A DNA stretch of 64,000 nucleotides from Mustelus asterias (taxonomy: Eukaryota): positions 109,616,001 to 109,680,000 of the forward strand of contig NC_135808.1 of assembly GCF_964213995.1 (NCBI RefSeq), read 5' to 3'. Positions 17,368-51,999 of the stretch are shown one piece after another (within the stretch, counting starts at the first letter, position 1; each line of letters starts with the position of its first letter). Below the pieces are notes generated by a model that was not told where the DNA came from, made no database searches, and worked only from the letters and a program-made list of their open reading frames with translations. The translations under genes and the position numbers were made by a program.

Positions 17368-17983
17368 ATTGTGCCTGCTGGCCTGCATTTGCTCCCAGTC
17401 CAGGGGCCCTTTGACTTTAAACTTCTCACCCTGATTTTTATATCCAAGGCTTTTATACTCCAAAACTCACCCAGGCTTACATTCCTTTGAGATCTCTGCA
17501 CTCTTCTAGTTCTGGCCCCTTGCATGTCCCCAATTTTAATCCACCATTCGGGCCACGCCTTCAGCTTCCTAGCCTGAAGTTCTGGAATTTTTTCTCAAAG
17601 CCTCTTTGCCTCTCAACCTCCCTCTCCTCCTTAAAACCTAATTGACCAAGATTTTGGTCATCTGTCCTCATATCTCTTTATGTGGCTCAGTGTTAGGTGT
17701 TGTTTGATGACTCTTCTGTGAAGCACATTGGGATATTTGACTATGTTAAGATGCTATATAAATGTAAGGTCTGGTTGCTTGAAATTAACATTCAGAAATT
17801 AATAAATAATGAGAGAAATTGACCTCTTAATTCACTGAGAGCCTGAGTAATGCTAAAGACAGTAATTCAGGACATACTGATTGCATTTCTCCATAGCATT
17901 GTAGACAAAAATAAGTCAAATTTTAACTCATTTTTATATGTCATGGATATATGTAAAAATAAAAATATTTATTTTATTTTTAG

Positions 17984-18738
17984 ACTGGGTTTGTCCCTTT
18001 TTCATCGCCTTTGGAGCTTGTATGATATTGGCAACTGTTACCTGTTGCCTGTTTCACTTGCGGAAGACCAGAAACCGGAAAAAGGAGATAACAGAATGGG
18101 TGAATGCCATGAAATTTGGGGGGAAAGTGTATCATCCATTATTGCACTGGATTAAGAACAACAGTGATCTATCTATTAAAACTAGAATGTATTGCTCAGC
18201 CAGTGAGGAATGCAAGAAAAGAAAGATTTGGAAAACCCGCACCATATTACCAGTGAGATACAAGAAGATAATGGAGGAACCAAGTGTGCTTAATCGTGAA
18301 GCAGGTGACTGTAATAGCATGCACGTTGGAAACAAGCCTTTTCCCAAACCACCTGTGTATGTCGCCACTGGTGAAGCCAGTTCCCTATATGGTCAGGTTA
18401 ATCATAATGAACAAGCCAAGTGTAAGTCTTCCTTAAATACTAAGAAATCCCAGCAGCAAGTCTTTCCAAACTCTCTTTTTCTGGATGAAAAACGTGTGGT
18501 GGAACGTGACAAACGGCAATCTGTCAATGCCTGTCCAGATGTAAATAGTCCGTTTAGTTCTTCAGAACACAAGGAGTGTTCAGACTCTATTTCAACTAGA
18601 TTATCTGATTTAAAAGTGGAAAAGCATGAAGCTTCAACCATCAGACAGGAGCGCTGTAAGGCACCTGTGTTGTCCGAACCAAACTCAGATACCCAGAAAG
18701 CCAATGTCTATTCTGTCCCTGACACTGTCTCTTTGTGA
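17984..18738 (+). CDS. Terminal coding exon of an uncharacterised single-pass membrane protein
   Basis: 755-nt open frame in non-repeat DNA; acceptor ttttattttatttttag; hydrophobic WVCPFFIAFGACMILATVTCCLFHL followed by RKTRNRKK; TGA ends at 18738; AATAAA at 19051 and 19115. Confidence 0.75.
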
Positions 18739-20879
18739 AAGTTCTCTCTGTTTTTTTTCAGATTCTATATGCCCCCTCCATCTGGCAGTATTCAGATGTG
18801 TTTAACCTGTCAATTCTATTATTATTCTAAGAAATTCTGCACCATTTCAAGATTCCACTATTTTCACACTCTAAATAATCTGCTTGGAATCACTTTCAGA
18901 TCCTATCAAAACTACTGTCTCCAAATTTCAGTTTATAATCTAATAGTTTTGTTATCTATTCCGCATCTGGTGCGGCCTATAATAGAATTGTTTTTCTAAA
19001 CAGCATAAAATAGCTTCACTCTAACACATATGCATAGTTAATTAATATCAAATAAAGGAAATGTCTATTTCAGTGCTGACATTGTGCTTTAAAGTGCAAA
19101 TCTATTGTATGAATAATAAATATAATTCAAATCCTGTTGACTCAAAGCTGAACTGAACCTAAATGCTTAACGCCGTTTCTTTATGATTTTAACATGGTCA
19201 TTGTATTTAGAGATTTGGTTACTTACTCTCCTGGCTTTAATTCCAGGGCAAGTTGACATTTCCCCACACATTTCCGAATCCAGGATAACATTTACCTCCA
19301 GATATGTTACTAATTGATCTTCCAGAGTGAGGAGGTAAAAATTAACTAGGATTCGTGTTTCTGATCTATTTCCAGCAACTCCTACCTAGATTACAGCCAA
19401 GAACTTTCTGCCAAGTTCCACCTGCCGTTAGTAGATATGAACGGGAAATTAGGACGGAATAGCCTATCTTTAATCTTCCCACGCCATCACTGCAGTCAGG
19501 GATCTTCCTCCAACAGGAAAGCTTGCCAGCCATACTTGACCATATTCAACCCAGCCAGTTACTCTCTTTACCACCACTTTCACAGATAAACCCTAGGATT
19601 GATAACAGAAAGTTGGCGGTGCACCTTGACATTGTACCAAGGATCTCACAATGGCCATCGTTGGAAGAGAAAGGCCCAATAGACTGTTACCTCTTCCTCT
19701 CTTCATGCCCTTGACCTGAAGTATGAGCCCCTCATTTAAAGAGAGCCTTTTCTGAGAATTTGTCGCTTAAATCATCTGCAGCATTAACTAATTTTTTCAG
19801 TGTTTATAGGTTTCCACTATGTGTTGGAAATGCTGGCTGGAACCAGCTCTGCAAAATTGATGAGCCCCAAGCAGGAAAATGGCTCAGGACTTCTGCAAGA
19901 TCAACAGAAATTCCACCTTATCCCATCCCTGACAGCAAATCCGCTCCAGAGGAAATTCAGCCTGACACTTGTTTGAACTTCAGTGCAACGTGGAGGCTTG
20001 ATAATGCCTCCTGCAGACAAGTAGTCTGCCCACACTCATAATCAGAGCTCCTGCAGCGCAGTACTGAGGGAGCACTGCAGTTTTTGTGGTGCCATTTTTC
20101 CATGAGGTATTTAACTGAGGCCCCATCTGCCTTCTCATGCGGATGTAAAATGGCACTATTTTGAATAAAAGCAGGGAAGTTATTCCTGGTTTTCTAGCCA
20201 ATATTTATGGTGGCACATTCACTGCTGCTAATCTGGTGATTCTACATTCATCTAGGATATAAGTTTTATTTTGGGCAAGACAGAGGTCAACGATTATAAA
20301 TCAACATTTATCTTCCTACGGATCAAATGCTTGATTGAATTTTATCTGCACTCTGGAGGTGAAATATTGCAGCTGGTGTCAGTCTTAGCGATGGTCTATT
20401 GGAGTCGGAATAAAACATCCAAAACTCATTTCACCCACACTCAGTCATTATACAAGGAGACAGCATTTGTATTTCCATTAATTTGAACTGTTTCCAACTA
20501 CCCGTGGTGAAGTGAACAGTGTTAGCCACACCCTATTTTGTCAACCAATTATTTCCAATAGACGGTTGACAAATTTTGGAACATTATCTAAATTTGTATT
20601 TTATTGGCATCCAATTCCGGTGTGTGCATGATTAATGAGGTGGGAAGCAGATACAGCACAAAAACCTCACCATTGCGGCAAGTGGGAAAAATGTTGTTTT
20701 TCACACCTACTCCTGCACTTAGTGAAATGTGAGAAAAATCCCACACCATAACATTAAAACGAATTATTTGATTATTGCGGTTGTGAAACCTTAATGTTTA
20801 CAAATTAGCTGCCATGTTTCCTGCAATACACTTCAAAACTACTTCATTAGCTGTATAGCAGTTTCGGACACTCTAAGAT

Positions 20880-21512
20880 GTACAAGGCATATTTTTTACA
20901 GAGAGTGGTGGGTGCCTGGAACTTGTTGCCGGGGGAGGTAGTGGAAGCGGATACGGAAGTGACTTTTAAGGGGCATCTTGACAAGTACATGAATAGGATG
21001 GGAATAGAGGGATATCGTCCCCGGAAGCATAGGGAGTTTTAGTTAAGTTGGGCAGCGTGGTCGGTGCAGGCTTGGAGGGCCGAAGGGCCTGTTCCTGTGC
21101 TGTAATTTTCTTTGTTCTTTGTTCTAAGATCATGAAAAGTGCTTCAGAAATACAAGCCTTCCGTTTCAAATAATGGCTATTTGGGCAAAGAACTTTGAGG
21201 GAGACTAAAACTTGGGGACACAGTTTAAAAATAAGAGATCTCCTTTTAAAGACAAAGATGAGGATTTATTTTTCTTTCTCAGAGGGTTGTGAGAGTTGTT
21301 AGTTTGTGGAATTCTCTTCCCCAGAGAGCAGTGAAGGCTGGGTCATTTATTCTGAGTTAGATAAATTTTTGATAGGCAAAGGTGTCAAGGGTTGTGGAGA
21401 GGGCAGACAGGAAAGTGGAGTTGACACCACAACCAATTCAGCCATTATCTTATCAAATGCTGGAGCAAGCTGGAAAGGCCGAATGGCCTCCTCCTATCCC
21501 TAAGTCTTATGT
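20880..21512 (+). mobile_element. Two CR1 3' fragments (20880-21125, 21190-21512)
   Basis: cagagagtggtgggtgcctggaac; (ttctttg)n tail. Confidence 0.85.
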
Positions 21513-21750
21513 TCCAATGTAACTGGAATCTTTTCATGGAATAATAATGCGCAAGCAGTTACCATTTTAAGGAGAGATCAGGAGAAAACTGGCAAGAAAA
21601 AGAACTATGGTCAAATTATGTTGCTTGCTATCCTATGATTCCTTCTGGAATGTGTATATTTATTTTTGGAGGCTAGTTCGGCTATGATATCACATAATCA
21701 AAATGCCAGCAGCAATCTTAATGTCTTAGGCCCAACCATCTTCAGCTGCT

Positions 21751-22905
21751 CATGGCAGACTGGTGCAGAAGGTGAAGTCGCATGGGATCAAAAGTGAGCT
21801 GGCAAGGTGGATACAGAACTGGCTTGGTCATAGAAGACAGAGGGTAGGAGTGGAAGGGTGTGTTTCTGAATGGAGGGCTGTGACAAGTGGCATTCCTCAG
21901 GGATCAGTGCTGGGACCTTTGCTGTTCGGAATATATATAAATGATTTGGAAGAAAATGTAACTGGTTTGGTTAGTAAGTTTGCGGATGACACAAAGATTG
22001 GTGGATTTGCGGATAGCGATGAGGACCATCAGAGGATACAGCAGGATATAGATAGGTTGGAGGCTTGGGCGGAGAGATGGCAGATGGAGTTTAATCCGGA
22101 CAAATGTGAGGTAATGCATTTTGGAAGGTCTAATATAAAGATAGAAAATAAACAGTAAATGGCAGAACCCTTAAGAGTATTGATAGGCAGAGAGATCTGG
22201 GTGTACAGGCACACAAATCACTGAAAGTGGCAATGCAGGTGGAGAAGGTAGTCAAGAAGGCACACGGCATGCTTGCCTTCATCGGCTGGGACATTGAGTT
22301 TAAAAATTGGCAAGTCATGTTACAGCTTTATAGAACCTTAGTTAGGCTGCACTTGGAATATAGTGTTCAATTCTGGTCGCCACACTACCAGAAGGATGTG
22401 GAGGCTGTGGAGAGGGTACAGAAAAGATTTACCAGGATGTCGCCTGGCATGGAGGGCATTGGCTATGAGAAGAGGTTGGAGAAACTTGGTTTGTCCTCAC
22501 TGGAACGACGGAGGTTGAGGGGTGACCTGATAGTAGTCTACAAGATTATGAGGGGCATGGACAGAGTGGATAGTCAGAAGCTTTTTCCCAGGATGGAAGA
22601 GTCAATTACTAGGGGGCACAGGTTTAAGGTGCGAGGGGCAAGGTTTAAAGGAGATGTACGAGGCAAGTTTTTTACACAGAGGGTGGTGGGTGCCTGGAAC
22701 TCGCTGCCGGGGGAGGTAGTGGAAGCAGATACAGTCGTAACTTTTAAGGGGCGTCTTGATAAATACATGAATTGGATGGGAATAGAGGGATATGGTCCCT
22801 GGAAGGGTAGAGGGTTTTAGTTAAGTCGGGCAGCATGGTCAGTGCAGGCTTGGAGGGCCGAAGGGCCTGTTCCTGTGCTGTAATTTTCTTTGTCATTTGT
22901 TCTTT
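21751..22905 (+). mobile_element. CR1 LINE 3' part nested in another CR1/L2-like LINE (21715-23815)
   Basis: ORFs 21763-22158 and 22227-22820; the host element resumes at 22906 (MFADV..., W..KWQVTF). Confidence 0.93.
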
Positions 22906-24582
22906 GCTTCATCAATAACCCTCCTTCCATCATAAGGTCAGATGTGGGGATGTTTGCTGATGTCTGCCCAATGTTCAGCACCATTCACGACTCCTCAGAT
23001 ACTGAAGCAGTCCATATCCAAATGCAGCAAAACCTGGATAATATCCAGGCTTGGACTGACAAGTGGCAAGTAACATTTCCGCCACACAAATGCCAGCCAA
23101 TGGCCATTTCCAACAAGCAAGGATCTAACCATCGCCCCTCGAGTTTCAATGGCATTACCATTGCTGAATTCCCCATTATCAACTTCCTGGGGAGTTACCA
23201 TTGACCAGAAACTGAAACTGGACTAACTATATAAATACTATGGCTCCCAGAGAAGGACAAAGGCTAGGAATCCTGCAGCGAATAACTCACCTCCTGACCC
23301 CCTTGGCCACCATCAACAAAGCCTGGCCACCATCAACAAAGCACAAGTCAAGAATGTAATGGAATACTCTCCACTTGCCTGAATGAGTGCAGGTTCAAGA
23401 ACACTTGAGGAGCTTGACACCATGCAGGATAAAACAGCCTGCTAATTGCTACTCCTTCCACAAGCTTTCAATCCCTCCATCACTGAGGAACAGTGGCAGC
23501 AGTGTCTACCATCTACAAGATGCACTGCAGGAATTCACCAAGATTCCTTAGGCAGCACCTTCAAAACCCATGACCACTACCATCTAGAAAGACAAGAACA
23601 GCAGGTACCTGGGAACACCACCAAGGTTCCCCTCCAAGTCACTCATCATCCTGGCTTGAGAATAGATTGCTGTTCCTTCACTGTCACTTAGTCAAAATCC
23701 TGGAACTCCCACCCTAGTAGTACTGTGGAAGTTCTAGAATGCAGTTCATCACCACCTTCTTGATGGCAACGAAGGAGGGGCAATGCCCAAATCCTGTAAA
23801 ATGAATTTTAAAAATTAAAATGTGTAGGCTAAATTATAGAAAATGGGCAATTGGACTAGACACTAGTCCAGCATGAGTCAACACCTTTAGGAAAGGAAAG
23901 AACTTGGTAAATGTAACGCCCTTGTTATCCTGTCTCACAGAGCATAAGTTCTCAGGTTTGTTTTCTTCTTTATGTTACTTTAAAATAGTGGTCGAGAGAC
24001 CACAATCTGGCTCTGAAACCCTGGGCTGGGAAGTAGTAATCCCATAACTATTTGAAGATGAACAGGAGAATTACCTGCTTCTAGCTAACATTTATCCTTC
24101 AATCAGTGGATCCAAAAAAAAGATTAACCATGGGCATGTATCTTATTTTTGTACCTGAGACCATCCTATGTGCAAACTGGCTACCAGGTTTGCCTACAAA
24201 CCAATAACAACAGCCCTTTAAAAGCTGCAGTTACTACCTTTCTTTGAAGTCAATATTCAAGAAGTTTTACATCAGAAAACCTCAGAAAATGATGGAACTG
24301 AAGGGGCAATGTCACCCCTTTCATTCACTGTAGACTTTCAACCATTTTGTTCTGAGCTAATATTTATTTCTATTCACCACCAGGATTAACTGACATGTTA
24401 TTAACTTACAAATATTGCTGCATAACAGTAATATTTTAAAGTCAGATCGTAAAAGTATGAAACACAGAAAGAGGCCATTCAACTCAACAGGTCTACATCA
24501 GCTCTTTGTTAGAGCAATCCAAAATTAATTGCACTGTTTATTTATCTTAATCCTGCATCTTCTCCAACTTTCTATGCCTATA

Positions 24583-24930
24583 GGATGGCACAGTGGCACA
24601 GTAGTCGGCAGTGCCACCTCACAGCGCCAAGGACCTGGGTTTAATTCCAGCCTTGGGTGACTGTGTGGAGCTTGCACATTCTCCCCACGTTTGCATGGGT
24701 TTCCTCCGGGTGCTCCGGTTTCCTCCCACAGTCTAAAGATGCGTAGGTTAGGCAAATTGGCCATGGGAAAATTGCCCCTTAGTGTCAGAGGGGGGGGGGG
24801 GGGGGGGGGGGCGGCGGGTGGTTAGTAGGGTAAATATGCAGGGTTGCGGGGATAGGGCCTGGGTGGGACTGTCGGTGCAGACTTGATGGGCTAAATGGCC
24901 TCCTTCTGCACTGTTTGGATTCTATGATTC
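24583..24930 (+). mobile_element. HE1-like SINE with an internal poly-G run
   Basis: Same head and tail as the copy at 7785. Confidence 0.85.
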
Positions 24931-24989
24931 CATTGTTATGAAATTTGCCTTTAAAATAATAAATCAGTGGTACTCAAACGTAATGTCAT

Positions 24990-25320
24990 GAAGAAAAAAG
25001 ACTTGCATTTGTATAGCACCTTTCATAACAGGACATCCCAAAGATGCTTTACAGTCAATGGTGCTGTTTAGAAGTGTAGTTGCTGTTGTAATGTAGGAAA
25101 TCCAAAAGCTAATTGGCACACGGCAAGCCCACAAGCAGCAACGTGATAATGGCCAAACAATCTGTTGTTTGCAATATTGATAGAGTGATAAATATTGGCC
25201 AGGATGCTGGAGATAACTCCCCTGCTTTTCTTCGAAATAGTGCCGTGGGATCTTTTGGGTCCACCTGAGAGGTCAGGCGACACCTCGATCAGTTTAATAT
25301 CTCACCCAAAAGACAGCAGT
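24990..25320 (-). mobile_element. Deu-domain SINE; related copies near 20030, 26300, 55190, 55850 and 59695
   Basis: aaaagatcccacggcactatttcgaagaaaagcaggggagttatc...cctggccaat resembles the Deu domain. Confidence 0.7.
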
Positions 25321-26756
25321 AGGCTGCATTTATTTGCGACACAACACTCAGGGGGAACATCCCTGAAAATGCACGGAGTGTCACGTCGTAGTGAATCAGT
25401 CTCTGACTGTTTAAATTGCGAGATGCTTTAAGTGCAGCTGGTGTCTTAGAACTCATTTTGTCATTTGCAACTAGACAGGCAGCCTGAATTAATTTATGAG
25501 CTGCAAATTGAAACCTGGTATTAGAGAGTAAATTAAAACAGAATCACGCTCGGGTTAAAACATTCCCTTCATTTGCCAGTCATGATTAAAATTCTCAGGA
25601 AATACTCCAGGGTATTTTTTTTTAATTGGATTTTTTGCAAATGTTATTAATAAGATTTTGAAAAGCATCAAAATATATGGGCTTACTCCAGCTTGCATTA
25701 TTTATTAAATTTTATTATTTTCTACAAATGAATGGATTTTTTAGTAGCTGGGCTCTTCTGGGAAGCCCCTGTTCACTCTTGGTAATTCTCGTATTTGCAA
25801 CAAGGACCTTTCTTCACCCAAACTCTTCAGCGTTTTGAACTAAGCAATATTATTTTTTTTTAATCATCACAAGACTCAAAAAACAGAGCATGCTGGAAAA
25901 TCTCAGCAGGTCTGACAGCATCGTCTGAGCCCACTGTCATCCAGACTCAAAACATTAGCTCTCCACAGATGCTGTCAGACCTCCTGAGATATTCCAGCAA
26001 TTGCTGTTTTTGTTCCAAGTTCCAACATCCACAGTAATTTGCTTTTACCTTAATGCCTCAGAAGACTTCTTCTAATAATTCAATAATTCATTAAATCATA
26101 ATTTCCATTTTGTGTATCTCGATGCATTGAAAGTTCAACATATTTATTCCCATAATAAGAAGTCTGGAGTGGGACTTGATGCTTCTGCCGTTGACTGGAA
26201 AAGCATCAGGATCAGTTGTGCATGCACCTCCACCTGAGTGCAACAATTCTTGATGCATTTCCAATCAGCTGCAGGAATTAAAGTGAAGATAACATCTCGA
26301 ACAGTGCAGCATTGCCTTGGTATGGAGTGCAAGTCTTCATTTTTGCACTCAAGTCCTGGAGTGGAAGACTTGAATCCACAGTCTTCTGACTCCAAGGCAG
26401 GACTGCCACAACTGTCGCATACCTGACACACACACACACTCTCCATAGAGAGTCCAAGGAAAGACTAGGGTTAGGACCCAGGTTACCAAATAACAAAAGA
26501 AAAATAGAGGAATATTGGAAACAAACCATGACAATTGTGTGTGGTAAAATGTAAGGGGTAGGCCAACTAAAGTTCATACACCAACATACCACACCCCATA
26601 TCAGCTCCATAGAATCCACCCCTCTGGACAGCTATCTAAGCTAAAGATTAGGCGATCCCCTAGTTCCACTTCCATTCTTATAGACTCTATGACCAAGAAT
26701 TGCTGCTAATGAACAACTACACAACACTCACTCAACACAAAACATGTCTTTCCCCC

Positions 26757-27045
26757 TAGTGGTTAGCACTGCTGCCTCACAACGCCAGGGACCTGGGTTT
26801 GATTCCAACCTTGGGTCACTTTCTGTGCGAAACCTGTGCTTTCTCCCCATGTCTGCGTGGGTTTCCTCCGGGTGCTCCGGTTTCCTCCCACAGTCCAAAG
26901 ATGCAGGTTAGGTGAATTGGCTGCGCTAAATTCTCCCTCAGTGTACTGGAACAGGTGCCAGAGTGTGGTGATGAGGGGATTTTCACAGTAACTTCATTGC
27001 AGTGTGATTGTAAGCCTACTTGTGATTAATAAATAAACTTTAAAC
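26757..27045 (+). mobile_element. HE1-like SINE, alternative tail
   Basis: Head and tail as at 17080. Confidence 0.85.
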
Positions 27046-28913
27046 TTTTTTACTCTCTTAACCAATGATGAAGCTTCACATTCAGAATAAGCACCTGTGA
27101 AGCATATCAATAGAGCATAATGTCCACTTTCTGTCCAGACCAAGAGATTACTGAGTAGTCTAGAGGCCTATATAAGAGATCCAACCACTTTATCAACCAC
27201 CTAAGGCTTCTTCGCAGTAAAGACCAGGCAGATACAGTGGGGAAGATGGAAATACAGCAACATTTATTGTAGGCACCACTTCACGGTAGGTTACTGTGGA
27301 AGTGGAAACATTCCTGCTTCTTGACTGTGATAGAAAGACTCAACAAAATTTGTTCCGACTAAATAACTAGTCTTTATTTACAAAAGACTGCATGCAGTAG
27401 TGGCAGTAACTTGAGTTTAGAGAGCAGTTGTTACAACTTGCTCATTCCTTCTCAAGTTCGACCTCACATAAAGAATCAGTTCATTATTTATACATAATCA
27501 TTATCAGTTTGCGTGACTAGAGCTTATTCAGGAATTCGATCAGTAATAGAATCATAAGCAATGTCATAAATCATGGCACAACCTGCTGACCTCCTAGAAC
27601 TCTTTGTCTCATCATTCATGCCCTTATTTTGTCCTTTGAAAGAACAGAAAAAGGTCGGTGACTCCTTCATCCCGGACCTTATCTTGTCTTACTCATACAG
27701 CCCTAGGTTATGCGGAGTCAGCCTTATCAGGTCTTACAGGGGTCAGGCATTTTGGAACAGCTTGGTCAGCTTTCCTTATATTGTACCAAATAGTTGACCA
27801 ATTTTCCCATCATGCCATTACTTAATTCGTACAACTGCACATACTCTCTGCTCACCTGTTATTCTGAGGAACTGATGATGGCAAGTAACCATCTATTCTG
27901 AAATCTATAGATCCGTTTTATTGATATAGGTATGTAAATAGATTCACGAATGAATGAGTGCTGCCTCAATGTACTACTTCACTAATATACAATCCAGCAT
28001 TTTCTGATCAAAAATTGACATTTATTTTCATTTGTTTGTACACATTAGAGTAACTGTAATTCCAACTACATTTGTGATTTATTGATCACTATCATTCATA
28101 ACAAGACATTAGAATTATTTATTAAAATTAGTTTTTAAAATTATAAATCTTTAGACACAGACTGCAAAGCATCTCCTGCTCAGATAAATTAATCGTAATC
28201 ATTAGCCAGATTTGGATGTCTCCCGCGTTCTGTTCAAATGGAACACATCCTACTGAATGCCCATTGCCCAGCTGGTGTCCCAACTGTCTCGCTAAATATC
28301 TGAAACTAGCTACACTAACAAAGCAGAAAATGCACCAGAAACACACACACATATTTGACTACTTTGTGTGGGGGTAATAAAAATATATTTTGGTGATTCT
28401 AGACAAAATAAGTCAAGGTAAGGATCAGGATGTTAAAATGATGGAAGCTGCCTGAGTTGTGACACTTCCATGTTAAAACAACCAATAGTCTGAAACCACA
28501 AAAGTGAGGTATTTGAGGATTGTTGCAACCCATAGAATTCAATCTTAACACAGTCCACTGCCTTCAGAAAAGAAGGGGTAAGGGGAAATCAGTGTGTATT
28601 TGAATGTAATCAGAGTCTCCAACTCCACTCATTAATCTGGGACATGCCACATGGATGTGGCAGTATTTCTTTATAGGTGGAAAAATAATAGAGCAACTAA
28701 TGCACACACCTCAGCATTGTCTAACGGGTATGTATAAGAATTATTGGGAGCTGACTTGCTGCCATAACCCTAGTTGGCATGGGTGATATGGATAAACTGA
28801 CCAATGGTGTGATACCGAAAAGTGGAAGCAAAAAGGGGAATTATTTTGGGAAATTGACAAATATTTCGGAATTAACACTGCTAACCTGAGGTAATCATTT
28901 GTTTTGTGCATTA

Positions 28914-29678
28914 GGGGCGATCTTGAGCCCACATTCGCCATTTGTGCGAATACTGCCAGGGCTCCAAGATTCAGAAGTCATAGATCTCCCAGGCGACGTA
29001 ATCAAGTTCATGCCCATAATCAATTGTAAATGTCAGTGCGGTGTCAATTGGCCGCTGCATATTGACACTGCGCTGATGTTTACAACAGATTCACACAGAC
29101 ATGAGCCTCCCCAGAGGCACAAAGGTAAGTATTGCCCCTGGCACAAATTGGCACCATGCCCGTGCCAAACTGACACTGCCAGCATGTACCAAGGGTAGGC
29201 CCCAATGGGAGCCTCATGGGGACGGGGTGGCATGGATTCATTTGGATGTGGTTGCAGCTGGGAGTGGATGGAGGAGCTGGAGATACCATTAATGGCCTTT
29301 GGTGGGGGAGATGGGTGCCAGCTCAGACTGTGGCGGGGAGGGATGGCCGATGTTCGGCAGCAGGGAGAAGGGACCAATGATCTGTTGGGGGGGGGGAATT
29401 GAGGGATCCCCTGACACCTTCGTGGTGGGCTTGGTGGGAGGTTTATACAGGTTATGATCAGGGCACCTTTGAAAGATGGCATCCTGATCTCAGTGCAGCC
29501 AGGCTTTGCCAGCATGTTTAGGCCCTGTACCCTGTGTGGCGGTGTGAAACACGCCCCCTTGAATTTTTTTTGGCAGAGTGTCGTAAGATCTGAAGAGAAA
29601 ACCGACCTGTTTCTCTGGAAACACGCTGGTTTTCTTCTTGGAAACAACACTCTGCCATTTTTTGGTAAGATTTAGCCC
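28914..29678. mobile_element. Non-autonomous DNA transposon (MITE-like)
   Basis: Imperfect TIRs ggggcgatctt / aagatttagccc bound a GC-rich block in AT-rich DNA. Confidence 0.5.
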
Positions 29679-29999
29679 TGAGTTATAGAGTTCCAATTAT
29701 TTTCCAGTGAAAACAATTGAATACAACAGATGAGAACATTTCTAAAGCAGAATAATTGTACTGTATACTTTCTCTTTTGAAAGTATCCTGACAGCCTATC
29801 ATCAGCCAAAAGCTTTTTATCTTTGCAGTGTCTGCAAGTCATGAGGAACTAATTCGAACCAAAGATTTAATTGAGCACATGAATGCCCGAGAAAAGACCC
29901 TCACTGATTAACAAATTAAGGAAATGCCAATATTTTCATTGTACCATTAAGCCATCAGGAATTTTCTGTGATAAGGGGGCAGTACTCCAATTCCTTTAA

Positions 30000-30308
30000 T
30001 AGAATCATTGAATCCCTACAGTGCAGAAGGAGGCCATTCAGCCCGTCGAGTCTGCACCGATCACAATCCCACCCAGGCCCTATTCCCGTAACCCCACATA
30101 TTTACTCTGCTAATCCCCTGACACCAGGGTCAATTTAGGGCCTATCAACCTAACCTGCACATCTTTGGACTGTGGGAGGAAACTGGAGCACCCAGAGGAA
30201 ACCCATACAGACATGGGGAGAATGCAAACTCCACACAGTGAGTCGAGGCCAGAATTGAACCTGGGTCCCTGGCGCTGTGAGGCAGCAGTGCTAACCACTG
30301 TGCTACCA
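30000..30308 (-). mobile_element. HE1-like SINE
   Basis: Reverse complement of the HE1-like consensus. Confidence 0.85.
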
Positions 30309-30928
30309 ATGGATATTCATACAATACTTTTAGATGAAATACTCAAAACATGCAATAAACTATTTTTAATCACAGTTTTTTAATCCATACATTTCCCTCA
30401 GTCTTTCCAAACGATCCTCTGTGTTCTTCCGCAGAAGGCCAAAATGTGTATTGTTGTCCATCCTTGATTGCTATTCTCTACCTGTCTCCCAAGTGAATGC
30501 ATGAGAACAGATTGGAGTCAACTCATGGTGATTACTCCACTACTGTCTCCACACCCACAGCAGCAACTGGAGTGGGAAATGCCTTTCAGCCAAATGCACT
30601 TTATTGTGAGTCCAAAATCAATGGTTACCAGCTCAGGGGGCAATATACTGAGATATTTATTTCAGTTCCCATTTCAATCTTGCCTTTAGTGGTTTTACTT
30701 GTTAAATTGTAATCCTGAGACTCCTTTATCAAAAGAACATTTGACAATAATACAAAACAGTACTTGTTATGGGAGGTGCCATATATTACATCCCACAATT
30801 AAAAAGATGGTTCCAAATTGTTAATATTAAACCAGGATTTGTTTTTGATAAGTTGTAATTATTAAGGTTGATGCTGGCAGTTGTCCTGTGCTTGCCAGTT
30901 ATTTTAACTCTCTTTCCTGATGTTTCTT

Positions 30929-31165
30929 CTATGCCCATTCCGATCTCCAAGTATCGTCACTCTCCAGATTTCCATCTTGGCTGTTATTGAAATGATGTGG
31001 ATGGATAGCACTTGGAGCCAGGTTGGGGTCAGGACTGAGTTTACTAGATTCATGCTGTTGTGCTGGTCGAATTGTTAGATTTTCATAAGCCGGACTTGTC
31101 AACAAACTTGTGGTGTTAGATTGAGTAAAGTTTGCCTTGTAAGTGGTAGTGATATTTTTCTCTGC
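30929..31165 (-). CDS. SELENOP2: SELENOP2-like terminal coding exon (AEKNITT...WRSEWA*)
   Basis: ctcttgcag acceptor, phase 0 matching the previous exon; TAG stop; AATAAA on minus at 30656-30661 and 30600-30605. Confidence 0.75.
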   Translation of the reverse strand, partial: AEKNITTTYKANFTQSNTTSLLTSPAYENLTIRPAQQHESSKLSPDPNLAPSAIHPHHFNNSQDGNLESDDTWRSEWA

Positions 31166-31171
31166 CTGCAA

Positions 31172-31830
31172 GAGCAACAACTTATATTTATATAGCACCT
31201 TTAATGTCATGAAACTTCACAGGAACATTATAAAATAAAGCATGACACTGAGTCACATATGGCAGTATTAGGTCAGATAATCAAAAGCTTGGTTAGAGGT
31301 AGGTTTTAAGGAGTGTCTTAAAAGGAGGAAAGCAAAATAGAAAGGCAGAGAGGTTATACAGAGGGTTTTCCAAAGCTTGGGGTCTAGATAATTGAAGGTA
31401 TGGCCATCAGTGGTGGAGCGATTAAAATTGGGGATGCACAAAAGACTAGAATTAGGGAGGCACAGTTATCATGGAGGGTTATGAGGCTGCAGATTACAGA
31501 GAAAGCAAGGAGCAAGGCCATGGGGGATTTGAAATCATGGGTGAGAGTTTTGAAATAAGATATTGCTTGACTGGGAGCCAATGTCAGTCAAGGGTGATAG
31601 GGGAACAAGACTTGTTACAGGTTAAGGCACAGGCAGCAGAGCTTTGGATGAGTTCAAGATTATGGGTGACAGAATATTGGCGAACAGCCAGGAGTGTGTT
31701 GGAATAGCCGAGGCTAGAGGTAACGAAGGCATGGATGAGGGTTTCAGCAGCAGATGAGCTGAGACAAGGGCAAAGTCCAGTATTGTAACTGAGGTGGAGA
31801 TAGGCGGTCATAGAAAAGGCACGAGTATGA
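31172..31830 (-). mobile_element. L2-clade LINE 3' fragment
   Basis: AETLIHAFVTSSLGYSNTLL...LIQSSAA; 3' end ggtgctatataaatataagttgttg. Confidence 0.85.
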
Positions 31831-31955
31831 GGTCGAAAGCTTACTTCTATTTGCTTGAAGACAAATGTCTGAGCTATACTGATGCCACAAACATTACATT
31901 TTTGCTATAATATGACCACTACCAAGCATCTCTTTGGCCTTTCTGAGATTGAGAA

Positions 31956-32160
31956 CAGTAATAAGTCTCACAACACCAGGGTAAAGTCCAACAAGTTTAT
32001 TTGGTATCACGAGCTTTCGGAGCGCTGCTCTTTCATCAGGTAATGAAGGAGCAGCGCTCCGAAAGCTCGTGAAAACAAATAAACTTGTTGGACTTTAACC
32101 TGGTGTTGCGAGACTTCTTACTGTGCCCACCCCAGTCCAACACCGGCATCTCCACATCAT
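31956..32160. mobile_element. Fold-back mini-element made of two inverted Penelope ends
   Basis: About 80-bp inverted arms; TSD tgagattgagaa at 31944 and 32160. Confidence 0.85.
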
Positions 32161-32207
32161 GAGATTGAGAATGCTAAGTAACACTAACAAATAACACTAA
32201 CAATTAC

Positions 32208-32334
32208 CTCAAGACTGCCGTTGCTGCAATTCCCGCAGACATCCTTGCTATATGTAGCCCGGATTGCTGCTTCAGTGTACCGAAAATGGAGGTAGCTATA
32301 TGGTAATACGATGTGAAAGGTTAATTTACCACAT
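32208..32334 (-). CDS. SELENOP2: SELENOP2-like coding exon 3 (CGKLTFHIVLPYSYLHFRYTEAAIRATYSKDVCGNCSNGSLE)
   Basis: Manual translation; ccctag acceptor and GAG|gtaatt donor; 127 nt; matches the SelP N-terminal domain. Confidence 0.95.
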
Positions 32335-33090
32335 CTAGGGGAAAAGGAAAATCACAAAAATGGGATTAAATACCTTGAAGTGACATGTGAGTTTCATTGT
32401 AAACCCCAGCCCAATTCCTTGAAAATCATACCTTGCAGATGCCGTTAGAAGATAAACCGTTGAACAACTGCTCAATTTTGAAGATTGATAGCTAGTATCA
32501 CAGTGGATAAAAAATATCATATTGTGCAGCATTGAACCACACAGGCTAGAAGGACTCCTAGTTTTGCCTGTAGCCTATTTAGTTCTCAGTTGGAGATGGC
32601 TATAATTTGACTCAGTCAGGTGACCCAGGAATATAGAAAGGCAAATTTCTGAAGCATCAACCAGGACTCTTCCTGATGTTTGTTGTTTGGTGATTCCTGT
32701 TAGAAAGCACATCTGTGTATGCACATAAGGACTGGATCAGGCTTGCCTATAATGGCAAAAGTGTTCACACATGGATGCTTGAGCAAACTATAACCAATGA
32801 CTATTGCCACCATCTAATCATAATGTCATATTTCAACACAAGCACCTTCTTGATAAAAGGGCAAAAATTGGCAGGGAATAACTTTTACTTATTTTGTAAA
32901 ATATTTCAATAGTAAAAGCAGCAAGGTTCTGCTACTTTGTTAGCACAAAACAGGGTGCTAGAATAAATCATTCCTTATTCCTACTTTCCCAGTGATGCTA
33001 ACTACTGTTGTGCACAAATAACCGAAGGAGGAAGAATCTGTTCAATAGCAATAAATGGTCTACTCAGTGTTACCATTTAAAGTAACCAAC

Positions 33091-33303
33091 CTGTCATAAA
33101 TGAGGAAGTCGTCCTTGTTACCCTGCAGAATGCTCCAGATATCATGTTGAAACGGTGACTGTTGGTAGACAGGGATATTCTTAGGAACATGCCGTTGGAG
33201 CTCCCAGAACATGGCCCTTGATTGGGGTGTTTTCTCATTCACTATCATATAGCGTACATCCTTCAGGTCCTGATGATCAAGCTTGTCTCGCAAGCTGCCT
33301 AAT
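33091..33303 (-). CDS. SELENOP2: SELENOP2-like coding exon 2 (LGSLRDKL...SRAMFWEL...IPVYQQ...KDDFLIYDR)
   Basis: ORF 33060-33293; 213 nt, phase 2-2; the KDDFLIYDR signature; SRAMxWEL resembles the SelPb paralog. Confidence 0.96.
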
Positions 33304-37782: not shown

Positions 37783-37911
37783 CTGTGCTTCACTTAATAG
37801 CTAATGATAGAATAGAATTCCAGTCTGTGTTCTTGAATGGAGAAAGTTTATAGCATTGTGGAGATTACATAAGCATGAAAGTGGAAAATAATTTTGGAGT
37901 GCAATGCTTAC

Positions 37912-38120
37912 TTAGTTGCCTGTGTCAGACAGAACCGGCAGCTTGCTTTCAGAAGGGCCACCACCACGACATGTCCAATCTGTTCCTCCATGGGGCTCTG
38001 GTTGGCAATCTCCCAGTGAGGGGCCACCTTACAGATTCTGCTTTCACTTCCTGCTGCTGCTGCCACGGTAATTGTTAGGCCCAAAACAATAGAGAGTAAA
38101 GGCATCTCCAGCCCCATCAT
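37912..38120 (-). CDS. SELENOP2: SELENOP2-like coding exon 1: signal peptide + SRICK..W...VVVVALLKAS-C-RFC
   Basis: ORF 37908-38120; acceptor at 38137-38138; donor AA|gtaagc; the codon at the Sec position (37938-37940) is TGC. Confidence 0.96.
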
Positions 38121-38665
38121 GATCTCTTACACATCCCTACAATTTGGGAGTAGATGAACAATAAATTATGAACATTTTGTAAAAGAAGCAGAAAGCTAAA
38201 AGCCCCTATAAGTATTGTGGAAAAGACAACAAACGATTGCAGATTTTCTGGTGAGGGCGAAATTCTGAACACCGGGGACTCATTCAGTATATTTTTCTGC
38301 AAAGCTCTACACTTTAAAAATGTTGTTGACTTGTTTGCACAGTGCCGAAATTAAGCAATCGGCGATTTGTGCTGCAAAAAAAACGCAAAGACAGAACAAA
38401 TAAAAACTGATAATATACAAGTATTTTAAAAAAACACTGGCGAAAGCGCATGCAAAGTGTCCAGACACAATTGTAACATGAGTTTGTTGCAATTTCGATG
38501 AGAGGTTTGGAGACTTTTGAACTCTACAAATACAATCGCAATGGATTGAATTCGGACATTGAGAAAAGGTTTAGCAAGGCTACGTCTGAAACCAATACAA
38601 TTCAGATGATGAACATGGAAAAATTTCTTTGAGCTGTTAGGGGCAAAATACATCATCACTTTTAC

Positions 38666-38900
38666 CTTTTCGCTGAGTTTCACTCTTTTGTCTCCCTCTG
38701 GGCGTCCGATCCAAGCTCTGGTCTCCTTGCTTCCTTGCTTCCTCCCCAGCTCTCAGCCACAGGCTATCTCCCGGATTGCAAACGACTTGTTTGTGGAATG
38801 TTAACTCTTTAAGGACGGAATGATTTTTATCCCTCTTTCTGTTCTGGGTAAACGTGGGGAAAACAGTGAGTGGTGGTTCCTGCATTGCTCTGCTTAAATA
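38666..38900 (-). promoter_or_regulatory. Putative SELENOP2 core promoter and non-coding exon 1
   Basis: TATTTAA on minus at 38894-38900; Inr-like CTCACT about 33 nt downstream (~38867); donor AAG|gtaaaa at 38665. Confidence 0.5.
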
Positions 38901-39194: not shown

Positions 39195-41967
39195 ACAAAG
39201 AACAAAGAACAGTACAGCACAGGAAACAGGCCCTTCGGCCCTCCAAGCCTGTGCCGCTCCTTGGTCCAACTAGACCAATCGTTTGTATCCCTCCATTCCC
39301 AGGCTGCTCATGTGACTATCCAGGTAAGTCTTAAACGATGTCAGCGTGCCTGCCCCCACCACCCTCTGTGTAAAAAACGTCCCTCTGATGTCTGAGTTAT
39401 ACTTCGCCCCTCTCAGCTTGAGCCCGTGACCCCTCGTGATCGTCACCTCCGACCTGGGAAAAAGCTTCCCACTGTTCACCCTATCTATACCCTTCATAAT
39501 CTTGTATACCTCTATTAGATCTCCCCTCATTCTCCGTCTTTCCAAGGAGAACAACCCCAGTCTACCCAATCTCTCCTCAGAGCTAAGACTCTCCATACCA
39601 GGCAACATCCTGGTAAACCTTCTCTGCACTCTCTCCAATGCCTCCACATCCTTCTGGTGACCAGAACTGGACGCAGTACTCCAAATGTGGCCTAACCAGC
39701 GTTCTATACAGCTGCATCATCAGACTCCAGCTTTTATACTCTATACCCCGTCCTATAAAGGCAAGCATACCATATGCCTTCTTCACCATCTTCTCCACCT
39801 GTGTTGCCACCTTCAAGGATTTGTGGACTTGCACACCTAGGTCCCTCTGTGTTTCTATACTCCTGATGACTCTGCCATTTATTGTATAACTCCTCCCTAC
39901 ATTATTTCTTCCAAAATGCATCACTTCGCATTTATCCGGATTAAACTCCATCTGCCACCTCTCCGCCCAATTTTCCAGCCTATCTATATCCTGCTGTATT
40001 GCCCGATAATGCTCTTCGCTATCCACAAGTCCAGCCATCTTCATGTCATCCGCAAACTTGCTGATTACACCAGTTACACCTTCTTCCAAATCATTTATAT
40101 ATATCACAAATAGCAGAGGTCCCAGTACAGAGCCCTGCGGAACACCACTGGTCACAGACCTCCAGCCGGAAAAAGACCCTTCGACCACTACCCTCTGTCT
40201 CCTATGGCCAAGCCAGTTCTCCACCCATCTAGCCACTTCTCCTTGTATCCCATGAGCCTTAACGTTCTTAACCAACCTGCCATGTGGGACTTTGTCAAAT
40301 GCCTTACTGAAATCCATATAGACGACATCCACGGCCCTTCCTTCATCAACCGTTTTTGTCACTTCCTCAAAAAACTCCACCAAATTTGTAAGGCACGACC
40401 TCCCTCTTACAAAACCATGCTGTCTGTCACTAATGAGTTTGTTCCGTTCTAAATGCACATACATCCTGTCTCTAAGAATCCTCTCCAACAACTTCCCTAC
40501 CACGGACGTCAAGCTCACCGGCCTATAATTTCCTGGGTTATCCCTGCTACCCTTCTTAAACAACGGGACCACATTCGCTATCCTCCAATCCTCAGGGACC
40601 TCACCCGTGTCCAAAGAAGCGACAAAGATTTCCGTCAGAGGCCCAGCAATTTCACCTCTCGTTTCCCTGAGCAGTCGAGGATAGATGCCATCAGGCCCTG
40701 GGGCTTTGTCAGTTTTAATGTTCCCTAAAAAACCTAACACTTCCTCTCTTGTAATGGAGATTTTCTCTAACGGGTCAACACCTCCCTCCGAGACACTCCT
40801 GGTTAACACGCCCCTCTCCTTCGTGAATACCGATGCAAAGTATTCATTTAGGATCTCCCCTATTCCCTTGGGTTCTAAGCATAATTCCCCTCCTTTGTCC
40901 CTGAGAGGTCCGATTTTCTCCCTGACAACTCTTTTGTTCCTAACGTATGAATAGAATGCCTTAGGATTCTCCTTAATCCTGCCTGCCAAGAACATCTCGT
41001 GACCTCTTTTTGCCCTTCTAACTCCCCGTTTGAGATCTTTCCTACTCTCTCTGTATTCCTCCAGAGCTCCATCTGTTTTCAGTTGCCTGGACTTAACGTA
41101 CGCCTCCCTTTTCATTTTCATCAGATCCTCAATTTCCCTGGTTATCCACGGCTCTCGAATCCTACCTTTCCTATCTTTCCTTTTTACAGGCACATGCCTA
41201 TCCTGCAGCCTTATCAATAGTTCCTTAAAAGACTCCCACATGCCAGACGCGGACTTACCCTCGAACATCCTCTCCCAATCAACATCCACCAATTCCTGCC
41301 TAATCCGGCTATAGTCAGCCTTCCCCCAATTTAGCACCCTGCCCGTAGGACAGCACTCATCCTTGTCCATTACTATCCTAAAGTTAACAGAGTTGTGGTC
41401 ACTATTTGCCACATGTTCCCCTACCGAAACTTTGACGACCTGACCGGGCTCATTTCCCAGAACTAGGTCCAGTATAGCCCCCTCTCTAGTCGGGCTATCT
41501 ACATACTGTTCCAAAGAACCTTCCAGTACGCATTTTACAAATTCCTCCCCGTCCGGTCCCCCAGCTCTAAGCACTTTCCAGTCTGTGCCAGGGAAATTAA
41601 AGTCCCCCACTACAACAACCCTATGTTTTCTGCACCTATCCAGAATCTCCTGACATATCCTTTCCTCCACTTCCCGTGGGCTGTTGGGTGGTCTGTAGTA
41701 CACCCCCAGCATAGTGACTGCACCCTTCCTGTTTCTGAGTTCCACCCACAGCGACTCAGTACATGACCCCTCTAAGTTGTCTACCCTCTGCACCGCGGTA
41801 ATATGCTCCTTAACTAATATCGCTACTCCCCCACCATTTTTAGCCCCTCCTCTGTCTCGCCTAAAACACTTATACCCCGGAATATTCAGCTGCCAGTCCT
41901 GTCCTTCTTTTAACCAAGTTTCCGTCACCGCAACCACATCCAAATTCCGCACAAGCATTAAGGCCCT
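39195..41967 (-). mobile_element. Young CR1 LINE with a 791-aa open APE endonuclease + RT frame, 5'-truncated
   Basis: VTETW, YRPPN, GDFN, SDH and FADD motifs; (ttctttg)n tail; ccta at both junctions. Confidence 0.97.
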
Positions 41968-42036
41968 AATTGGTTGAAGTCATGAGGTTACACTAAGGCT
42001 TCATTTGAAGCAATTTTTTAAAGCAGCATTTCAGCC

Positions 42037-42229
42037 TTTTTTTTATACTTTTCCAATTCAATCAAATCAAATCCAATTCAGAGTCTCAACAAGTTGAGAC
42101 ATTTCAGATCCAGGCTGACAAGACAGGGCAAGCGACCAAACCACCCTGTCCTGGGCCTGATCTACATGAGCCAAGCTGTTTGGAGAAGGGGGAGGTTCCT
42201 CCTCCAAGACTTGAGCTCATTTGCATCTT
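42037..42229 (-). mobile_element. U2-SINE-like family, 5'-truncated copy C, antisense inside copy B
   Basis: Reverse complement of 43081-43274, including the A tail (T8 at 42037-42044). Confidence 0.9.
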
Positions 42230-42397
42230 TTGGCTAAGATGCAAATGAGATCAAGCCTTGGAGAAGATGCAATGCCTGCTCCAATCAGCTTGGATCATGT
42301 AGATCAAGCCCAGGACAGGAAGTGAGAGACCTGTCTTGTCAGCTTGGATCTGACAAGCTCTACACTTTAAAAATGTTGTTGACTTGTTTGCACAGTA

Positions 42398-42941: not shown

Positions 42942-43274
42942 ATCGCTTCTCGGCCTTTTGGCTAAGATCAAGTGTAGTATGGAGAGGATGCTGCACTTGG
43001 TTGAGGTCATTAGGTTACGCTGAAGCTTCATATGTTTCATATGAAGCAATTTTTTAAAGCGGCATCTTGGCCTTTTGGCTAAGATGCAAATGAGCCCAAG
43101 TCTTGGAGGAGGAACCTCCCCCTTCTCCAATCAGCTTGGCTCATGGAGATCGGGCCCAGGACAGGGTGGTTTGGTCGCTTGCCCTGTCTTGTCAGCCTGG
43201 ATCGGAAATGTCTCAACTTGTTGAGACTCTGAATTGGATTTGATTTGATTGAATTGGAAAAGTATTAAAAAAAA
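42942..43274 (+). mobile_element. U2 snRNA-headed SINE-like retroposon, full-length copy A
   Basis: U2 nt 1-39 at 42942-42980, then a non-U2 body and an A8 tail; 17-bp TSD aacatgaatgattaata at 42920 and 43273. Confidence 0.9.
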
Positions 43275-51672: not shown

Positions 51673-51999
51673 ATGGACGTGGAGGAAGAGCACATGACGA
51701 CGCTGCTGTGCATGGGCTTCTCGGAGCCCGCCGCCATCCGCAAGGCGCTCCGCATGGCCAAGAACGACATCAACGAGGCTGTGGCCCTCCTCACCAACGA
51801 AAGCCCCGGCCTCGGCTACGAGCCGATGGAGAGCGGCGATCGCCAGGTGGGAGGAGGTGGAGGAGGCGGTGGCACCGGCTCCCGTGGTGGAGGAGGCGGC
51901 GGAGGTGGAGGGAGTGGAGGTGGGGGAGGAGGAGGAGGGGACTACAACCGGAGTGGCTTCGACCCTCCACCCGCCTACGATGAGGTGGTAGAGGTGGAG
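51673..51999 (+). CDS. USP24: USP24 coding exon 1 (UBA-like domain + Gly-rich linker)
   Basis: MDVEEEHMTTLLCMGFSEPAAIRKALRMAKNDINEAVALLTNE...GFDPPPAY; donor GAG|gtaaga; 327 nt. The rest of the window is intron 1. Confidence 0.97.

Follow-up and report, generated by a model that had tools for sequence, protein, structure and literature searches.

The 64-kb window analysed here, a continuous stretch of the genome of the shark Mustelus asterias, harbours on its minus strand a SELENOP2 gene in which cysteine (Cys) stands at the selenocysteine (Sec) position. The gene has four coding exons with a total of 786 nt, corresponding to 261 aa and a TAG stop codon (Table 1). On the minus strand, positions 37949-37929 read AAA GCA AGC TGC CGG TTC TGT, encoding K-A-S-C-R-F-C. 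The catalytic position does not carry UGA and a SECIS could not be detected in the 3'-UTR; the gene is a Cys homolog and not a selenoprotein.

Gene structure and confirmation of the TGC codon

All three coding introns have GT-AG ends and are in phases 2, 2 and 0, and the spliced product is identical, letter for letter, to the NCBI protein 'selenoprotein Pb-like [Mustelus asterias]' (P0002). It matches the Pfam family SelP_N (PF04592) with 255 bits (E=5.9e-76; curated cut-off 23.2). The N-terminus is hydrophobic, with the top 15-residue windows beginning at residues 6-9, and eight N-glycosylation sequons are present. The six Cys of the domain are all kept, and identity to five other sharks is 82-89%. 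In the tail encoded by the last exon there is neither an in-frame UGA nor a Cys. The first-pass annotation, made from the sequence letters and without naming the strand, had proposed an intact 261-aa frame with intact splice sites and a Sec to Cys replacement in the motif. Both proposals hold. The match is no product of chance: besides the SelP_N score, the codon aligned in this genome's SELENOP1 paralog is TGA (see below).

Table 1. Parts of the Cys-type SELENOP2 gene, in positions of the window
Feature	Position	Strand	Evidence and remarks
5'-UTR exon, non-coding	38666..38771, upper end approximate	-	GT donor 38665-38664; continuation of the spliced contigs X20, X21 and X1 (near 38668)
Coding exon 1: predicted signal peptide and start of thioredoxin-like domain	37912..38136, ATG at 38120 (coding 38120-37912)	-	
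C61-R-F-C64 motif	37929..37940	-	Cys61 TGC 37940-37938 at the Sec position; Cys64 TGT 37931-37929
Coding exon 2	33091..33303	-	AG/GT ends; exon 1-exon 2 junction in three contigs; SelP_N match
Coding exon 3	32208..32334	-	AG/GT ends; SelP_N match
Last exon, coding part	30929..31165	-	Thr/Ser/Pro-rich tail; N-glycosylation sequons; stop TAG
3'-UTR	30353..30928, end approximate	-	No detectable SECIS; ATTAAA at 30384 and 30370

The TGC codon at 37938-37940 was found unchanged in all four public Logan contigs compared over 37800-38330. One of them, X22, spans this region unspliced and may be the source of the assembly. The other three (X20, X21 and X1) match 37912-38138 only; on one side their loose ends run on into exon 2, on the other into a non-coding exon located upstream, which shows that they are spliced. 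X1 stems from a different organism and a different study, and differs by three bases and one inserted codon, none of them within the motif. Thus, the codon is real and the gene is spliced; the confirmation comes from assembled contigs rather than raw reads, so that a rare or heterozygous TGA allele could escape, and three of the four contigs belong to one study, possibly the source of the assembly. The runs are not recorded as RNA.

The extent of the 5'-UTR exon was deduced from the lengths of the loose ends (91-104 nt). The lengths of the contigs give a weak hint that the 3' end lies near 30353-30279, just past the ATTAAA at 30370. For the junctions past exon 2, the basis is the splice signals and the NCBI model.

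The gene is the SELENOP2 paralog

Two genome searches, in which only the best candidates were scored, revealed two SelP loci in M. asterias. The locus outside the window (contig C6, 144729070-144739124) has TGA at the aligned codon (QAS-TGA-HFC) and 18 further UGAs in its last exon, which amounts to 19 in-frame UGAs and therefore identifies it as SELENOP1. Its intron phases, 2, 2 and 0, are those of SELENOP2. At its exon 2/3 junction the protein reads D-S-C where SELENOP2 proteins carry D-R-C.

A maximum-likelihood tree was calculated from 27 rows, picked for domain coverage from 136 proteins, and the C6 gene. It was rooted at the midpoint and holds no invertebrate outgroup, and its SELENOP1 rows are from sharks only. 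The four SELENOP1 rows separate with 100/100 support, and the protein from the window falls into a 13-row chondrichthyan SELENOP2 group (96/93), within which the order among the elasmobranchs is left unresolved. The frogs fall outside the fish group, and the terminal branches of the sharks are short. In addition, the protein has no C-terminal tail rich in Sec, and a separate, multi-Sec SELENOP1 exists in the same genome. This supports the view that the Cys-type gene is the single SELENOP2 (SelPb) of this shark, in agreement with the paralog assigned in the first-pass annotation, for which a tree had been recommended.

No SECIS is detectable behind SELENOP2

The Rfam model SECIS_1 gave no match at E<=10 behind SELENOP2, neither in 30250-31000 nor in 20000-33000. 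Behind SELENOP1, which served as control, it matched two hairpins, of which the first has a GUGA core; their scores of 20.9 and 19.4 bits are both below the gathering score of 35, and at that score Rfam reports no SECIS at either locus, the control included. A first pattern scan resulted in five unconvincing matches in 10 kb. In a stricter scan of our own, which recovered just one of the two control hairpins, there was no match in the SELENOP2 UTR and one poor match in 5.9 kb, compared with 0-1 in shuffled sequences. With both control hairpins below the gathering score and one of them escaping our own scan, a divergent or fossil SECIS could be overlooked, but the SECIS of SELENOP2 has likely been lost. 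Taken with the absence of UGA from the reading frame, and with the two sub-threshold hairpins of SELENOP1 as comparison, this supports the selenium independence that had been predicted from the sequence alone.

Distribution of Cys and Sec at the motif

Cys was found at the Sec position in the full-length annotated proteins of all 11 named shark species (Mustelus and ten others, from four orders), a count that is biased toward Cys, since the collection apparently omits records with U (0 of the 283 fetched proteins carry U or X) and Sec-bearing sharks therefore could not surface under a name. The motif is C-R-F-C in M. asterias, Scyliorhinus torazame, S. canicula, Carcharodon, Cetorhinus and Heterodontus, and C-G-F-C in Rhincodon, Stegostoma, Hemiscyllium and two Chiloscyllium species. 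All 11 are galeomorphs. We also considered that the shark Cys could originate from a conversion of U to C in the database, and rejected this on three grounds: the count of 0 of 283; the zebrafish cluster, in which only truncated forms or read-through forms with Trp (W) are present; and the Logan proteins P0132 and P0144, where W stands for TGA, as the zebrafish and SELENOP1 controls show.

SELENOP2 records of squalomorphs were found neither among the named shark matches nor in the accessible part of the Fig. S22 text of PMC13134290, which would fit retention of Sec in this group or plain absence from the collection. A search of representative proteins (584 matches) added nothing on sharks among the 150 listed, and a literature search on selenoproteins of squalomorph sharks gave nothing relevant among the matches listed. 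At the Sec position, W is found in two proteins of chondrichthyan type: P0009, which is placed as sister to Callorhinchus (99/97), and P0010. As W stands for a TGA that was read through, other cartilaginous fishes still carry Sec.

Three further species deserve mention. The protein recorded for elephant shark (Callorhinchus milii; P0008, UniRef A0A4W3HTY3) reads KAS-C-QFC, while its sister in the tree, P0009, reads W; the Cys could reflect either a separate conversion or an artefact of the record. In mud carp (Cirrhinus molitorella), P0013 and P0120 from two GenBank assemblies read KAS-C-HFC and their cluster mates end at LLKAS, the point of the TGA, which makes a Cys-type SELENOP2 possible in this fish. 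SelPb of the swordfish Xiphias gladius (P0011, RefSeq XP_040000374.1) has Trp at the Sec position, which may go back to a genuine TGG codon or to an error in the sequence.

All three named frog records have Cys as well: CRFC in Bombina, CSFC in Rhinophrynus and CGFC in Pristimantis. The residue following the Sec position is Gln or His in TGA-type records, Arg or Gly in the Cys-bearing sharks, and Arg, Ser or Gly in the Cys-bearing frogs. This change could be a redox retuning, or it could simply have become permissible once the UGA-C context that recoding requires was no longer needed; two independent origins are too few to decide between these readings. A far-reaching reading, which we consider doubtful, is that Sec was lost from SELENOP2 later and more frequently than published, in galeomorphs and not at the root of the sharks, and separately in elephant shark and mud carp, and that sharks and frogs convergently retuned U-Q/H-F-C to C-R/G/S-F-C, resulting in a selected, selenium-free plasma oxidoreductase.

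Predicted fold and possible function

The AlphaFold2 model of SELENOP2, based on a 15-row alignment, is of medium quality, with a mean pLDDT of 57.6 (the other four models score 38-43) and a pTM of 0.51. It shows a compact domain at approximately residues 27-178, with 107 residues at pLDDT 70-90 and none at >=90; the tail (residues 179-261) is below 50. In the model C61 opens a helix (62-80) after a strand (52-57), and the CxxC is thus placed at a helix start following a core strand, as in thioredoxin folds. With Foldseek, 285 matches were obtained at E<=0.001, the best at 3.5e-6; those listed have a thioredoxin fold (Sco, TlpA/ResA/DsbE-like, peroxiredoxins). A sequence search of the PDB found no solved SelP structure, with a single, unrelated match at E=0.77.

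From the hydrophobic N-terminus and the predicted fold we infer secretion and redox activity. We consider it probable that SELENOP2 is a secreted thioredoxin-fold protein which uses C61-x-x-C64 for thiol-disulfide chemistry or for a slow reduction of peroxides, in either case without selenium. A single TGA to TGC change in a shark ancestor would have ended the need for UGA recoding; the SECIS would have decayed afterwards, and translation would have been freed from selenium supply. The protein would be secreted and glycosylated, C61 would attack a peroxide or disulfide, C64 would resolve the intermediate, and an outside reductant would recycle the pair. The transport of selenium would fall to SELENOP1, where 19 UGAs and two SECIS-like hairpins are retained.

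Against this reading, Sec enzymes are as a rule much slower in a Cys version, and an extracellular CxxC may be in the oxidised state. In its favour, mouse SELENOP shows peroxidase activity in its UxxC motif upon reduction via thioredoxin reductase 1, according to the portion of PMC5133445 available (citing Kurokawa 2014). In the same source, however, mice without the equivalent Sec (U40S) have no obvious clinical defect. By analogy with these mice, the role of the motif in SELENOP2 may be minor.

Secreted proteins traverse an oxidising compartment, and C61 and C64 could therefore form a stable, redox-silent disulfide in a non-catalytic protein that binds, for example, a surface, heparin or metal. 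Sco-family copper-binding proteins head the Foldseek list, and the heparin-binding site of SELENOP lies in this domain (available part of PMC5133445). Nevertheless, we regard a silent disulfide as unlikely: the model places the motif where thioredoxins have their canonical active site; Ser, likewise reachable from TGA in one step, occurs in no shark or frog record, all of which (11 of 11 and 3 of 3) have Cys; and the His-rich tail is reduced to four His past residue 180, compared with 15-20 in two teleost-type proteins.

Improbable to a greater degree is that the conversion reflects relaxed selection and drift toward loss, with little function left. SELENOP2 was lost in Eutheria (10.1101/2025.05.29.656587 and PMC3316567, as far as their texts were accessible), so that the shark gene might be on the path taken by placental mammals; its C-terminal tail is poorly conserved, and strong expression cannot be read from contig depth. 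However, the proteins are full-length in 11 shark species of four orders, the domain identity of 82-89% and the short terminal branches argue against decay, and spliced contigs exist from two organisms. Finally, an assembly error at the TGC codon, or a surplus, unexpressed copy of the gene next to a normal Sec-SELENOP2, as considered in the first-pass annotation, was rejected: although the evidence consists of contigs only, three of four from a study possibly underlying the assembly, and the genome searches score best candidates only, TGC is present in all four contigs, including that of the other organism and study, three are spliced, neither search found a second SELENOP2 locus, and Cys is found in ten other sharks, in line with the published conversion (PMC13134290, in its accessible part).

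Comparison with known SELENOP2 and SELENOP1 genes

The first-pass annotation could not tell whether the conversion had been described in sharks. It is already known: Ticó, Lozano-Fernandez and Mariotti 2026 (PMC13134290; bioRxiv 10.1101/2025.05.29.656587) reported it for Selachii, and our statements on this and the other papers cited refer to the parts of their texts that were available. Gene, conversion and lineage are identical to the case described here. The text of Fig. S22 names Scyliorhinus canicula, Rhincodon, Hemiscyllium and two Chiloscyllium species, with Mustelus not among them in the accessible part. In the parts of the paper available, the shark conversion is treated in one sentence, and SECIS, codon and function are not addressed. 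Mustelus thus adds one shark species to a published conversion. In the same work only five of 21 reported vertebrate conversions lie outside tetrapods, shark SELENOP2 being one of them, and it runs counter to the trend of selenium retention in aquatic animals.

In Anura the same residue was converted independently (10.1101/2025.05.29.656587; PMC13134290, both in part). The frog genes have a separate origin from that of Mustelus, as indicated by their position outside the fish group in the tree, and share 59% domain identity with it. In bony fishes, rays, birds and reptiles, the Sec-containing SELENOP2 or SelPb shares with the Mustelus gene the SelP_N domain, the short tail without a Sec cluster and the location of the motif in the first coding exon, but it keeps UxxC and one SECIS (salmonids, PMC6301783, in part), whereas in the Mustelus gene the motif is CxxC and a SECIS was not detected. 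SELENOP1, represented by the C6 paralog and the mammalian protein, belongs to the same domain family; in contrast to Mustelus SELENOP2 it has retained UxxC along with 18 other UGAs and two SECIS-like hairpins, and it transports selenium. Mustelus SELENOP2 holds no Sec and so cannot transport selenium in this way.

With their Cys-type SELENOP2 proteins, sharks and frogs provide naturally occurring sulfur forms of the N-terminal domain of SELENOP. Such proteins could be produced without the Sec machinery and could aid the study of a domain for which we found no solved structure.

Genomic neighbourhood

Downstream of SELENOP2 and on the same strand, the window contains a diphthamide-synthesis gene (PF01866; 4130-7554, minus strand), which we take to be DPH2-like. 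Between these two minus-strand genes lies a stop-free frame of 277 residues with a hydrophobic start (17905-18735, plus strand); its minus-strand counterpart has no Pfam match. Head-to-head with SELENOP2 there is a GC-rich first exon (51676-51990, plus strand) that encodes Gly repeats and a UBA-like domain (E=1.2e-4) and is presumably USP24-like. Just upstream of SELENOP2 we found an open endonuclease/reverse-transcriptase frame of 798 aa (39583-41979, minus strand), which we assume to be LINE-type, and repeats derived from U2 snRNA (42942-43137, plus strand, and about 42100-42330). A similar U2-derived element lies upstream of SELENOP1's first coding exon (L007:6507-6706).
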